A DNA stretch of 63,998 bases, filler included, from Rhizaria sp. SCN 62-66 (taxonomy: Eukaryota): assembly GCA_001724265.1 (NCBI GenBank). It is 4 parts of 4 records of this genome, joined end to end, with 100 filler letters (N's around TTAATTAATTAA, not from the genome) between each part and the next. Parts side by side here need not be neighbours in the genome. Positions count along the whole stretch, not along the records: positions 58,570 to 63,998 come from MEDY01000635.1; 3 more parts are not named here. One strand, given 5' to 3'. Below, piece by piece: positions 19,242 to 63,998 of the stretch (positions are counted from its first letter, which is position 1; each line of letters opens with the position of its first letter). The notes beneath the pieces are model-generated. The model ran no database searches, had not been told where the DNA came from, and was given only the letters and a program-made list of their open reading frames with translations. Made by a program: the position numbers and the translations under genes.

Positions 19242-19341
19242 NNNNNNNNNNNNNNNNNNNNNNNNNNNNNNNNNNNNNNNNNNNNTTAATTAATTAANNN
19301 NNNNNNNNNNNNNNNNNNNNNNNNNNNNNNNNNNNNNNNNN
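19242..19341. other. Artificial contig linker (N-run + TTAATTAATTAA + N-run)
   Basis: Six-frame stop linker flanked by Ns; same design at 38508-38607 and 58470-58569. Confidence 0.98.
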
Positions 19342-38507: not shown

Positions 38508-38607
38508 NNNNNNNNNNNNNNNNNNNNNNNNNNNNNNNNNNNNNNNNNNNNTTAATTAATTAANNNNNNNNNNNNNNNNNNNNNNNNNNNNNNNNNNNNN
38601 NNNNNNN
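38508..38607. other. Artificial contig linker
   Basis: N-run + TTAATTAATTAA + N-run. Confidence 0.98.
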
Positions 38608-47000: not shown

Positions 47001-48324
47001 TTTTTTTTTTGTTCTGGCGCGCTTTCACGCGCTCTTTATTTTGTTCGCTGCAGCGTTTCCGGACCCCGACCTTCCCCGGACTGCTCGCAGCCTCATATCG
47101 CCCTGTTTGCTTTATCTGACCACTGAGCAGGTGCGCCAAGACTTGCTTTTCGAATCAATTCCTGACTGCTTGTGACAACGCAGTCACTTGGCTATCATAA
47201 GTTTACATGCGATGGTGATTCACTCATTCACAACCGTCACGGTGCATATGAATATTTAAATATTCAATTTATTTATATTTTTTAATTTTTTTGTATCGGC
47301 CCATATAGCACTCCGTAACCGCTCTAGTCTTCAAGTCGCAGCCACCAAGGTCGCAATTATTAATACAATCATGATCATTCTGATTTGGCATGTTTGTGAC
47401 AATGAATGCGGCTGACAGCATGGACCCAGACCCAGTTTGACACGACAGTTGCATGCGTACTTCAAGTTGATTTGTGAGACACAAGAAACACTTGATAGCT
47501 GGTCACCTTAAGAAGCTTTTCAGCAGTGTTGCTGTTGAATATTTTATCTTGCCAATGCGAGATGCTGATCTGGTATGTCTTGAATCCCTTTTCCCAGTGA
47601 CATTGTGACTAATATATATTCCCCCCGAAATAGTTACTTTAAAAGCCAGAAAAACTGATTTATGTGTTCAAAGGTAAACATCTTGAATAGAAGAACAAAA
47701 ACAAGAGACCAAGTGGAAAAAAAGTCTTTTTAGATATTATTTCATAGCTTTAAATAACTAAAATTTTGTCTGAGCGCGCTTTTATGCACACATATTTTCA
47801 CTTTTTCTGAATTGAAAGTAAAGTCTATCAATGCGAGGCCGATATATTTTATATTCATTTTTTGTTTACATTATTTTACGCATAAAAAATTTCGTTTACT
47901 TGCTCACAGAATGAGATATTTTCTTAGAATCGGTTTCTGTTCAGAGAGCTTCAACGAGTTGACAGAGCCAGCACATCCGCCAATTGATATTGCCATCTTC
48001 TGTGGCCGTTGTTTTCGTTCTCTGCCGAGTTATGATTGAGATCTCTATGTAATTCTTATTAATTCCTTTTTACACTTTGCTAGTCGCGGAGAATCACACA
48101 TGCCGAGCTGCAGTTCGACTCTCCTATGACAAACCCGAATGCATTCTCAAATCTTATCCCCTGAACCAAATTTTTACGGTCTCAAAAAGTGCCACGGTGC
48201 CGACCCTCTTACAAACAAGATTTAACTATGCTTTTATATCTTAATTCTAACGCATATCTAATGTGTTTCTTATCTTCACGATTTTTTGCCTCGTTTTATT
48301 GCTTCCTCCAGTTCGTTCGTCGCC

Positions 48325-48954
48325 ATGCTTCAGCGTGCCGTCCGCACCTCCCTGCGCTCCGTAACTGTTCCCCGCATCCCCGCCGCCGTGCTCTCTGCCC
48401 CGCGCGCCCTCGTGCACAACCGTCCCGTGAACGGTGTGACGTACAACGACGTGCGCCCCAAGGTGTCGTCGACCGCGTTCGTGGCCTTCAATGCGACGCT
48501 CGTCGGCGAGGTCCACCTCCACGACAAGGCGTCTGTGTATTACACCGCCGTCGTGCGCGCCGACAACACCCCCGTGGTGATCGGCGAGTGCACCAACATC
48601 CAGGAGGGCGCCGTGCTGCACTCGGACCCCGACGCCCCCTTAGCCGTGGGTAAGGGTGTGACCGTGGGCCACCGCGCGATCCTGCACGGCTGCCAGATCG
48701 CCGACAACGTGCTCATCGGCATGGGCGCCACGGTCATGAACAACGCCGTCATCGGCGAGAACAGCATCATTGGCGCCAACGCGCTCGTCACCGCCAACAC
48801 CAAGATCCCGGCCAACTCGCTCGTCATGGGCGCGCCTGCGAAGGTTGTGCGCGAAGTCAAGCCGCATGAGATCGAGGGCATTAAGGCCTCGGCCAAGGTC
48901 TACACCGACAAGATTGCCTCCGCTAAGGCCGGCAAGCCCCTGTACTTCGAGTAA
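48325..48954 (+). CDS. Gamma-class carbonic anhydrase (mitochondrial complex I CA-type subunit) with transit peptide
   Basis: Hexapeptide repeats (IGECTNIQEGAVLH, VGKGVTVGHRAILHGC, IGMGATVMNNAVIGENSIIGANALV) with all three Zn-ligand His; presequence MLQRAVRTSLRS. Confidence 0.93.
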   Translation: MLQRAVRTSLRSVTVPRIPAAVLSAPRALVHNRPVNGVTYNDVRPKVSSTAFVAFNATLVGEVHLHDKASVYYTAVVRADNTPVVIGECTNIQEGAVLHSDPDAPLAVGKGVTVGHRAILHGCQIADNVLIGMGATVMNNAVIGENSIIGANALVTANTKIPANSLVMGAPAKVVREVKPHEIEGIKASAKVYTDKIASAKAGKPLYFE

Positions 48955-58469: not shown

Positions 58470-58569
58470 NNNNNNNNNNNNNNNNNNNNNNNNNNNNNNN
58501 NNNNNNNNNNNNNTTAATTAATTAANNNNNNNNNNNNNNNNNNNNNNNNNNNNNNNNNNNNNNNNNNNN
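58470..58569. other. Artificial contig linker
   Basis: N-run + TTAATTAATTAA + N-run. Confidence 0.98.
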
Positions 58570-60328
58570 GCATTTTTCTTCTGTGTTCAGTCGGTGATGT
58601 GCGCATCGCCCATTTCCACGCCATGGGCAGCGTGGCCTTCCTTTGCTCCCTTTTGCCAGGTTTTAGTTGGGGGTGGAATCCGGGGTTCGCCCCATTCGAT
58701 TTTGCCGCCGACGATGCCTGGATCGCGCCATGGGTTGAGCATCGTGCACTCATAACCGCGCTCTGTGTACTTTTCTGAGCGTTGTAGGTCGCTCGCTGTT
58801 GCCGCCGGGGCATTTTTTGTTTCCGGGCATGCCGCATCTGCGAGATCTTTATGCGCCGCTCGATTTGATCTTGCGCATCGTCCGGCGGTCAGCCACGCCG
58901 TTCGGTGCCGCGAAGGATCTGACAAGCGGAGCTCCTTTTTATTGTTGCCTAGCTGACGTGCAGCTGCTAGAACCTTGAACTTGGGTCAAGTTTACTGACT
59001 GTTAGAAGCGCAGTCTTTACCACCATCGGGGGTCATCGTATCCTCATTTTTTCACCGTGCACGCGGCAGCTTCGGTCCCTTGCGCAAGCTCGGTTGATCA
59101 TACGTGGACTTGTTTCACAACATCTTATGGGCTTCGGCTCAACTTCTCTCGGCTGCGCGATTCAGTTTCGCATATCTCTGGTGACTTTCGTCATTTCAGC
59201 ATCTTCTGCTCGGCAGATCTTCTTCCCACTTTCGGCGATATGTGCTCTTTTGTAGTCTTTCTCGATTGTGGACTCTTTGTAGGTCATTGACCTTGGGATA
59301 ATAAACAAACACAACCCTTCTAACACAAGTGGTGTCGATTCGCTGGTTGACACCTGCTGATCGTCGCGATGGAGCTGATCTTGGTTCGAATCAGACAAAC
59401 TTGTGCCCTTCTTGACAAATCGACCACTCTTGTCTCGTTCTTGACCTTTCCACACAGGAATCTTCGACGCTGTTGACGAAGACTGTATCCTGGGCACTGC
59501 CGGTGCCGGATTCTCACGTCTGAAAAAAGGTCAACAAGATCCTGCACTCGATCTTGGTTGGTCAAAGCAGGAGTTCAGCACAATGAACAGATCCTGCAGG
59601 CGACGCCAATGTTGAATTGCCGAGGCACTCAAGCATGAATTTATGGGAACAGGATGGCTCACTGGCTAAACCATGTATTGCGGACCGATGACGGGGGGGG
59701 CAAGGGAAAGACGAAAGACAAAAGACAACGCTACAGAGGAAAGAGCCACATCAAGAAGGGAATGCCGGATTGACCAATCACACGAAGACAGATATGGTCC
59801 AATCACGTCACAGCTAATCCCATAACACGATAGAAGAGCATACAAGAGGCTACAATGGTATAATGTAATACATTCCTCAATGATCAGGTAGATCCGCTCG
59901 AAGCCGTGACGATCTCACCTCCAGTGTCACGCATTCCACGAAGATCGACGACATGCCGCTACGCATTCCACAATGATCGACAAGATGCGACACAGATCAT
60001 TCTCAGCCCATTACAATAACCGACCAATGAACTCAGGCCACCTCATACGTCAACAATATAACCCACTATTGCCCCACTGGCAATCCATAAGCTCTCCTCC
60101 AGCTTCCTAACATGACTGTAATTATGTTATGATTTCAAAATGTTTGCGAAGAAAAATTGTTTCGCAAAAATCATTAAGAAAACCAGATCAATTGGGATAT
60201 CCGATCCTCAGCTTCCTAATAATAGGCACAGCTTACTAAGAAACCATGGCCCGCTGGCATTCAGGAAGCAATCCTAACGCTACCAACATTACAAAATACA
60301 AGCATCCCAGAAATAGGCACAAAAAAAA

Positions 60329-62437
60329 TCACATGCCTGGTATGGCGAGTACGGCCTGCCTAACTTTGGAAGGGGGATCAACCACCTTACCATCTGACCC
60401 AATATATCGTTGACTGCGAAACGAACGAAATAATGACTGCGGAACGACAAACATAAGAATCGCTTCCTTCTTATGACAGCGAGTAGCTCGCATCACTTGA
60501 TTGAGGTGATTGAGCTTGATTGGGTGACGTCTGCTGACCGTAAACTGGAAAAAAAGGTTCGGCCACATCATAGAATCAATGGCTGCAGCATTCATAATTT
60601 TCGGCCGAAAATATTTGCCTGGCTCGAATTTGATGTCCAACTTCTCATATATAACAGTCTGAAGCCGGGCAAGGGGCAGGTCAAACACTTCCTTAGTATC
60701 ATCATCTAAATAGCGATATTTGAAGTGCGCTCCTTTCGTCAGTGCTGCGTGAGCCTGCCCCTCAAAAAAGAAGCCTCTGACCGGTCCGTACGGGCCGATT
60801 CCCTCCGTCGCACGGATGAGATTCAAAATCTTTCGGCGATGTGACGCGAAAAAATGCTTGCTTATTTCATCGCGTATGTACGGCGAAGCAAATTCGTACG
60901 TAAACTTCCGAAAGTTACTGCAGGGGACCATGACGACAAGGCGGTGCGGAATAGTCTTTGCAGTTGGCATGTTGGAGATTGCACCCATAATACCACTTAA
61001 ACTGACTTCGCTAATTGCGTGTTCGATGTCATCCTTGAGTTCAGCGTCGGTCCTGTCGGAAAGCATGGTACGCGCAATACCGCCGCCAAACTGAGAGCGC
61101 ATACAAAGCTTGTCATACGATACATTCTCCGCATACTTGCAGTATGTCGCAATATCTGTATCCGACCACACAGGCATGTAACGAACACGCGCCTGCATTT
61201 GCTTAGACCATTCTTTATACACCGCACGCCGTGGCGACGTTACGACGACGGTTCGATTGACGCGGGTGCTAATTCGGTAGACAGGTCGGTGGGCGTCCGT
61301 AATGTACCATGTATTTTTTTTATCCTCTAGAGTCAGAGAACATATATCCGTGGCAAGTGTCAAGCGAGTCTCGCCATTCGCAGATAAATAGTACCGTATG
61401 TGTGGATCACTGGGAGGTTCGTAAATTACGTTGACGCGTTTCGAAGCCAAATACCACAATAGATAAGCAGAGAAGAATGTTTTGCCAACGCCAGGGTTGC
61501 CCATAATTGTGAAGGCCAGCTTGTTGTTACGATGGGCAAAAGCAGGAGGGTCGGTTACGATGTTCAGAAACGTGGAATAACATTCCCGAACAAAAAGAAT
61601 AGGACCATCATCTCCCAACACATCAACGCCTGGTGGCATATGAAGACAAGGTATGTCGGCCGAAAAGGATGTCTCGCGAAGAAATTGCCAGAAGGCAAGG
61701 AACCCTACGTTCTTAACGTTAACATCTACGAACCAAGTCGAAAGGAATAAAGTACCGGGATCGGCCGTCGCTGTCTGAACCTTCAGCGTCGCAGCCGTCA
61801 AATTTGCAGCGCTGAGAGTGTCAACCACTTTGTCCACATAGCGCGTCTCATTTAAAATAGGTTCGTCTTCGTCCAAGTCGCCAGTGGTGTGAAGGAAAAG
61901 CTTTCAGCCGCACCAAGAAATGTCAGCCAACAGTCAAACGCGCGTGAAAAAAACGTACGCGGATGTTGGCGGTACCGGGCTTTGCTCCGTCGGCAAAGCA
62001 GTTGTCGTTTATGTACTTGCGAACGTAGTCCCAGGTAAATCCTTGGTCGCGCTCAATTGAGCAGCTACCTGAGACATCACCAGTCCAGGACACGTGAATG
62101 GGTGGCGGATGTTGATCAGATGCAACAGGAGTTGTAATGGTTACCGTCAACCGCTGACGTTTCACCCTATCTCGGTAATTAAGCTCATCTGCGCTTCCTC
62201 TCTTGCGAAGCTATGGCCGGTAAAAAAGGGCGCACGGGGCGCCCCGAAAACGTCAGCAAAAAAACGGTCAAAGTGCGCGCGAAAACGGGGGCGTACGCGA
62301 ATGTCCTCGGGTGCGGGTTTAGGGTCAGGGCGACGTGCGCGAATGTACTCGCGGACATCCGACCATTCCGAGTTGGCTGGAAAAAGACCACCATCGCCTA
62401 CTCTGTTCAGCTTCCACCTCACACGGATGGTCTCCAT
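60329..62437 (-). CDS. Crinkler/RHS-type (CR) effector: duplicated N-terminal header + P-loop NTPase + REase-fold domain, 3 exons, 654 aa
   Basis: Exons 62437-62297 (141 nt), 62210-61959 (252 nt), 61900-60329 (1572 nt), all phase 0. LFVRECY, Walker A GNPGVGKT, YITD, VVVTSP, YMPVWS, GGIAR, FASPYI, GFFFEGQAH, YFRP..NAAAIDS, FQFTVSRRHPIK. Confidence 0.85.
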
Positions 62438-63730
62438 GGCGCTGATGGCGGATGGGAAAAGGGAAAGACGACACTGATGACGTACGTTTCCGGTGTCGGT
62501 TGATTGGCTGAGAAGTCTGCCCTCAAATCCACCTCTTCAAAGCGGTAATCCGGGGTGGAATTTGGGGACGGTGCTGATTTGTGCGGTCCAATCTGATCTG
62601 CACTCTATCTACCGGTAATATCAAGTGGTGAGTGCTCGTACCTTGGCGTCGAGAATAACATCGAGCTGTGTTTGTGCACTTTTCCATTCGTCGAGCGCAA
62701 TGAAGCCATTGAACCCCCTTGATTCGTACCCATTGGAATCGACGCTTCGGGCCAGCCGTTTGAGAGCGCGGGAAAACACGTTTGATCTTTACTCGCGCGA
62801 CTCTGACCCAAATTGTTGACCAAGCGCTCACTTGAATCAGGACATTGGCAACGCGCGTCCTCTTTTCGAGCTGTTTTTAGAGTCTTCATGTTTGATGGAA
62901 TCCTTGTACAAGTTCGCGTTGATCTCGAGGCGGGCGCCATCAAATCGGCAGTTTTTGATCAAGCTCATTACCCGTCTGCGCGTTCCTCAGTTTGGCCGTT
63001 TGAACTGAGCGTGCTACTTTTCTCTTTCTGGACACATCATTTGTTCAGGATTGCGAGTTTGCAGTCGCTCTGGTGCTTCGTGTCGGCGGCGATGCTTGAA
63101 TACTTGCGGGCGAGTTTGGCGGTCGCCCGCACTAGGGCTGCAAGGATCCTGACACGTTCGTGCTGGCTCGGTAACTGGCTACACCCACCGTAGTGCATTT
63201 GAGCTCGCTGATGTGGTGCAGTGTATTTACAATGCCTCCGCCTTTCATGATGAGGAGAATGCGATCGCGCAGGCGACGCGTTGGTGGATGGCCCCCCAAG
63301 GCGATGCCAAAGTCACTTGACAACGACGTGCCGCTTTTGCCGCTCTAATTGCTCTGACTCTTTTATTGGTATTTGCTAGTAGCGCGATCTTTGTATTGTG
63401 TTTTGCTTGTGTTCAATAGAGTCCAATTTCATCGCCTTTAGTTAAATGAACGCATCTGCTGGTGTCGGCAACTATTTTCTAGTGTTCTTTGAAAGTGCAG
63501 CTGAATTAGTAATACCCAATGCGACACAATGCCATTGCACTCACGGGACACGTATCGGTTCTCTGCCAATGCCTTATGGACCTGGCACGACACGCCTGCC
63601 GACAATCCACGACCATCTTTCTACTTTGTCGTCTAAAAAATAATGCTTTAACGATAGAAAGGCAATTTAACTATTATAACACTTGAACAGCACATCAATA
63701 CACCATCCGACAAAGAGATGGCGCAAAGAT

Positions 63731-63998
63731 CTAGTGCTTTGAAATAAACTCGTTGATCGAAAAACCAGGGAACGCGACCGTGGCAATGGTCGCCACCGCG
63801 CATCCCCACACGCCGTAGCCAAATGGTACAAGATACGCCGTGCGCGAGCCGATAAGGAAGCGAAGGCCGCCAACTGCAGTGCCGGCCACAAAGCCCGCGA
63901 GGCCCATCTCATTCAGCCGCCGCACCTTTTCGTTGGCGCGCAGGCGGTACGCGCGATCCGAAACCTGATCCTGGTTCTGGTCGCTCAGCCTGTACACC
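63731..63998 (-). CDS. C-terminal part of a small membrane protein (two Gly-rich hydrophobic segments), start beyond the window
   Basis: ...DRAYRLRANEKVRRLNEMGLAGFVAGTAVGG...GYGVWGCAVATIATVA...; open to the window edge. Confidence 0.5.
   Translation of the reverse strand, partial: VYRLSDQNQDQVSDRAYRLRANEKVRRLNEMGLAGFVAGTAVGGLRFLIGSRTAYLVPFGYGVWGCAVATIATVAFPGFSINEFISKH

Follow-up and report, generated by a model that had tools for sequence, protein, structure and literature searches.

The window analysed here, a stretch of 63,998 nucleotides from Rhizaria sp. SCN 62-66 (assembly GCA_001724265.1, called G000 below), carries on its minus strand, at 60329..62437, a three-exon gene for a CR protein, a member of the family that includes the Crinklers and the trypanosome RHS proteins. 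The gene is real, with its splicing inferred; its N-terminal header is split by an intron and doubled, and stands on a body that is almost certainly the CR unit of a nucleoside triphosphatase (NTPase) and a restriction endonuclease-like (REase) domain. We give a probability of roughly 55% to a mechanism, taken as a whole, in which this is an intact conflict gene and its product would be an NTP-gated nuclease acting inside the protist's own cell.

CR proteins of free-living eukaryotes are already in print, with their NTPase+REase body and with recombination between N- and C-terminal parts (PMC5289972, PMC3726527, PMC12957317, PMC11342252, PMC6131194), and their architecture was given by Zhang et al. 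2016, as reviewed in PMC5289972, as NTPase, helix-turn-helix (HTH) and REase. Their role in eukaryotes that are not pathogens has yet to be settled (PMC5289972, PMC12957317). A literature search, which covered few subscription papers, returned neither a header family split by an intron nor a CR gene from a sainouroid; the local intron-split, doubled header is new, the CR family itself is known.

Exon structure of the gene

The three open reading frame (ORF) fragments that the initial annotation had spliced together do form a single frame of 654 residues, made of 47 + 84 + 523 codons and starting from an ATG at 62437. Exon 1 (62297..62437, 47 codons) encodes the half of header 1 that precedes the intron; its maximum hydropathy over 11 residues is 0.18, and no hydrophobic signal peptide was found in it. 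It is followed by predicted intron 1 (62211..62296; 86 nt, phase 0, GTACG...GCTGAC...CATAG) and by exon 2 (61959..62210, 84 codons), a phase 0-0 cassette that contains the post-intron half of header 1 (62136-62210), a linker and the pre-intron half of header 2 (61959-62102). Intron 2 (61901..61958; 58 nt, phase 0) precedes exon 3 (60329-61900, 523 codons plus the stop codon at 60331-60329), which opens with the post-intron half of header 2 (61772..61900), whose final L-x-V-x-T/I strand delimits header from body.

As annotated, both introns are in phase 0, lie directly after 'IR' and open with GTACG; both also contain a branch-like GCTGAC. In the four complete introns available for the header family (two in the window, one in the paralogue C606 of the same assembly and one in L013, a close metagenome copy), the AG that comes first after the branch site gives an in-frame junction, and GTACGT donors, read by eye, likewise open two introns of the adaptin gene of the window. 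L013 has the same double header and both introns, intron 2 being of 66 nt versus 58 nt through an 8-nt indel, with an identical acceptor. When the window is compared with L013, the synonymous divergence (dS) in codons 12-48 of exon 3 is 0.57 and the non-synonymous divergence (dN) 0.024 (P 1.6e-6), and this purifying selection indicates that the reading frame is translated; since exon 3 has its first in-frame ATG only after these codons, the frame would be entered by splicing.

The first 34 nt of exon 3 (61867..61900), coding for LFLH and the residues after it, are probably a former 3' end of the intron. Their DNA aligns without gaps with the 3' end of the C606 intron (25/49 nt, P 1e-4), and the AG at 61867-61868 occupies the position of the C606 acceptor; on the strength of this alignment the segment is most likely an exonised pyrimidine tract, produced by an acceptor that slid by 34 nt, and the earlier suggestion that 'IRLFLH' corresponds to the LFLAK strand of Crinklers is not borne out. 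The ancestral acceptor position, which would give an intron of 92 nt, is retained in the window, L013 and C606, and its use leads to a stop after 4 codons. Together with the single synonymous versus five non-synonymous changes in codons 1-11 of exon 3 (window versus L013), and with the fact that AAG is a weaker acceptor than YAG, this retention would favour a decaying or header-less gene, in which intron 2 ends at the ancestral site or the upstream exons are not joined. Conversely, no AG lies between the branch site and the 58-nt acceptor, which is in frame and conserved in L013, codons 12-48 are strongly purified and the motif residues are all intact, making decay very improbable.

Duplication of the header

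The C606 paralogue has a single header, with one 98-nt phase-0 intron at the same header position. The description of the two window headers as clear paralogues holds in this light, but not on direct comparison: header 1 against header 2 scores 36, a value reached by 16 of 2000 shuffles (53 of 2000 for the pre-intron halves alone), whereas against the single header of C606 they score 93 and 121, each reached by none of 2000 shuffles. The two headers are paralogues on sequence comparison, visible mainly through C606. The introns are homologous between the contig of the window gene (C635) and that of C606, with one match of 77% identity over 119 nt and another of 84% over 57 nt; the latter pairs intron 1 with the C606 intron, and the 5' half of intron 1 is homologous to both that intron and intron 2. 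A pattern built on the 5' halves of these three introns matches no others in 34.9 Mb, a result that is circular for the three and informative elsewhere. The cassette DNA of one header scores 58 against the other, where the maximum in 300 shuffles is 38. Homologous introns and the match of both headers to that of C606 indicate that the header was doubled together with its intron, as a cassette, as originally proposed.

Two further sequences, P0166 and P0170, have the same make-up as the exon 2 cassette, suggesting a tandem header in at least one other family member. A tandem-duplicated N-terminal header was also seen in P0117, an unrelated CR body relative (1 of 47 N-termini inspected by eye).

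The ubiquitin-like (beta-grasp) fold expected for the header is conjectural. Pfam returned no family for exons 1 and 2 and five related header ORFs, with the halves scanned apart; hhalign gave probabilities below 3%, and of 0.2% for PF20147, the profiles being small; neither a PF20147 match nor the LxLFLAK, DWL or HVLVxxP motifs were found in the header, and a weak search of the whole assembly gave no PF20147 match.

Recombination between headers and bodies

A header profile, run on 180 candidates of 25-147 residues, matched 7; two are the window's own and five are ENA metagenome ORFs, in agreement with a lineage-specific family, seen only in the window and its close metagenome relatives. A header hidden Markov model matched 0 of 151 proteins at E < 0.01.

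Within this family, the header is swapped independently of the body, as in CR proteins and as the initial annotation had anticipated. Among five sequences with identical last 499 residues, three differ in the post-intron header half, the switch lying at the last strand of the header, so that one identical 499-residue body bears two header ends. P0163 and P0169 are chimeras at the protein level: in their 5' part 31 of 32 residues agree with the header of C606, and in their 3' part 16-17 of 18 agree with header 1 of the window; the members of the two clusters derive from separate contigs. Over the last 69 codons of exon 2, dS between the window and L013 is 0.053, versus 0.44-0.57 in exon 3 (P 6e-6), which fits a recent exchange of the cassette. 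Sequence comparison shows a header re-mixed among family members at three levels: within its first half, before the intron; in the surroundings of the intron; and at its last strand.

The bodies of the two G000 genes are 31% identical and are not sisters in three trees; a constraint making them sisters is rejected without P0004 (p 0.0007) and is not rejected with it (p 0.12). Degenerate members were also observed: L013 (530-545, 763-790, 1435) is frameshifted early in exon 3, carries a changed Walker A and breaks off before the nuclease domain, and the four members of the P0003 cluster have an altered Walker A and no nuclease.

In what is probably a bacteria-eating rhizarian, headers mix fast on bodies that stay intact, which indicates that selection on headers needs no plant or animal host, and the shared intron offers datable landmarks for header doubling, exchange and extension, including the probable acceptor shift. 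The nature of CR proteins is unchanged by this, header exchange being already known from Phytophthora and a tandem header occurring in P0117 too. Since both introns are in phase 0 at the same place of the header, the exon 2 cassette could be added, traded from one locus to another or spliced out; skipping would leave an in-frame single hybrid header, and cassette exchange with gene conversion of exon 1 would build a header repertoire on NTPase-nuclease bodies. A rather speculative and on balance doubtful extension is that the intron-split header is a unit of combinatorial diversification, turning few loci into a polymorphic, NLR-like set of sensors in a free-living cercozoan.

The body and its relatives

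The CR-type NTPase of STAND/AAA+-like fold occupies approximately 61001..61720, with an intact Walker A (61501-61478), Walker B aspartate (61297-61295), an SP motif from 61237 and an intact conserved arginine (61072-61070), all on the minus strand like the rest of the body. By secondary structure, a helical or winged linker (60797..61000, approximate) leads to the C-terminal REase-like alpha/beta domain (60329..60796), predicted as alpha-beta-beta-beta-alpha-beta with conserved E, D, QxT and H; the residues E 60763, H 60751, D 60577, Q 60547, T 60541 and H 60526, which we take to be catalytic, are intact, as are all the family-conserved residues of the body.

The assignment of this body as CR-type NTPase+REase, made at first from the sequence alone, is supported by its relatives. 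It aligns over most of its length with oomycete and fungal Crinklers (26% identity and E 4e-44 with GMF31914.1 of Phytophthora lilii), and its predicted structure aligns over 442 residues with trypanosome RHS (PF07999) at a TM-score of 0.66. GMF31914.1 and RHZ71427.1 of Diversispora epigaea are Crinklers with a PF20147 header, and a further likeness is recombination at the last strand of the header; the window protein differs in lacking LxLFLAK, DWL and HVLVxxP motifs and a PF20147 match. Phytophthora species contain 61-451 Crinkler genes (PMC3726527), versus a small family in G000. From trypanosome RHS it differs by the absence of a match to PF07999 or PF20445 (RHS_N) and of evidence for a retrotransposon insertion hot spot. 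In the phagotrophic protist Capsaspora owczarzaki, CAOG_05461 and CAOG_08004 have the same body at 31-33% identity, with low-complexity N-termini, helical-looking by eye and unrelated to the window header. Medea1 of Tribolium (CR-NTPase8 + CR-REase7) shares the CR-kind NTPase+REase unit; in its REase7 the histidine stands three residues after the glutamate (PMC11342252), versus four here, and Medea1 is tied to killing and drive, whereas the window protein is known from sequence alone. Like CR proteins in general, the latter has a variable N-terminal header on a P-loop NTPase and REase body and no signal peptide, and belongs with those found in non-pathogens with header exchange (PMC5289972); it differs in its header, which is doubled, has a conserved intron running through it and matches neither a Pfam family nor any header carried by the 150 best relatives of the body.

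Host and genomic setting

The Arp3 of this genome is 76% identical to that of Guttulinopsis vulgaris, the bulk of the 120 listed matches lying at about 61-67%, and in a tree of 44 rows it groups with Guttulinopsis vulgaris in a clade of 12 (support 100/100); species were looked up for four of the 44 rows, G. vulgaris being the sole species name. This points to a host near Guttulinopsis, in the Sainouroidea (Cercozoa), which are dung- and sewage-associated bacterivores with gut passage unproven (PMC8827150).

The window joins four contig pieces, separated by N spacers at 19242-19341, 38508-38607 and 58470-58569, and the sole true neighbourhood of the gene is its own contig C635 (5,429 nt, window 58570-63998). 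G000 contains at least two CR copies; canonical actin and alpha/beta-tubulin are fragmentary in it, indicating that multi-copy genes are collapsed or missing and that CR copy counts are lower bounds.

In part this setting would suit a selfish or mobile element, a Medea-like killer or a transposon passenger of no benefit to the host, with header mixing as a by-product of ectopic recombination. The GC content at third codon positions of the CR exon is 0.51, while six further window genes, including one from its own contig, have 0.73-0.96; each copy sits on a short contig and the two contigs have a private repeat in common, that of C606 with a weak HTH_Tnp_4 remnant (E 0.084); degenerate copies exist (L013, the P0003 cluster), and CR NTPase+REase units occur in Medea1 and in transposon-related elements (PMC11342252). 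However, no terminal repeats flank the gene on its 5.4 kb contig and no transposase was found beside it, nor are there multiple near-identical insertions, in an assembly where repeats collapse; the two copies are unlike fresh insertions in being 31% identical, and spliceosomal introns are retained. A selfish origin appears unlikely to us.

Proposed mode of action

In the reading that we prefer, the header would be a compact module for interaction, serving to sense a partner that changes or to dock on it; the STAND/AAA+-like NTPase would act as a switch keeping the nuclease off until NTP binding or oligomerisation; and the REase domain, once released, would cut nucleic acid. The last two roles are taken from the model for the family, in which toxicity lies in the REase, under the control of the NTPase (PMC5289972). 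The arena would be the protist's own cell, with invading viral or mobile DNA or ingested or endosymbiotic bacteria as targets, or suicide upon infection as the outcome; the lack of a signal peptide and a host near bacterivorous dung and sewage protists make this arena the likeliest.

Some points weigh against this mechanism. Crinklers are delivered despite having no classical signal peptide (PMC5289972), and its absence here therefore argues only weakly for a role inside the cell; the host was placed by a single marker, which lies on a different contig from the gene in a binned assembly; the REase-like region, which was not folded separately, has no PDB or Pfam match of its own; and only two copies were found in G000, the other variants coming from other assemblies and possibly from other strains.

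The protein could instead be a delivered effector as in oomycetes and chytrids, in which the header exports it into prey, competitor or host cells and the nuclease hits their DNA. Of 55 proteins scanned, 4 join the same type of body to a PF20147 header; the place of recombination, at the last strand of the header, resembles the HVLVxxP hot spot (PMC5289972, PMC3726527); and some sainouroids are found with guts and faeces (PMC8827150). This alternative is nonetheless not probable, given the header without a match to those of Crinklers, the few copies and a named relative that is a bacterivorous dung amoeba, with gut passage unproven (PMC8827150).

Other features of the contigs

A non-coding repeat with a 55-nt core (59943..59997, 85% identical) is confined to the two CR-bearing contigs and may be a mobile-element remnant. 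The surrounding stretch (window 59640-60060; 1050-1450 in locus L004, on the C606 contig) contains CCAAT- and TATA-like motifs, is found by a G000 search on just these two contigs and has opposite orientations relative to the CR gene on them. At L004 128-547, minus strand, the ORF with the weak HTH_Tnp_4 match, single copy in G000, is presumably the remnant of a Harbinger/ISL2EU-type transposase; three diverged direct repeats about 170 nt apart lie at L004 2980-3435, and two copies of a 35-nt repeat at L004 4175-4275, just downstream of the C606 paralogue. Elsewhere in the window, 48262-48951 on the plus strand encodes an intronless hexapeptide-repeat protein, which resembles a mitochondrial gamma carbonic anhydrase and is in line with a non-opisthokont host.
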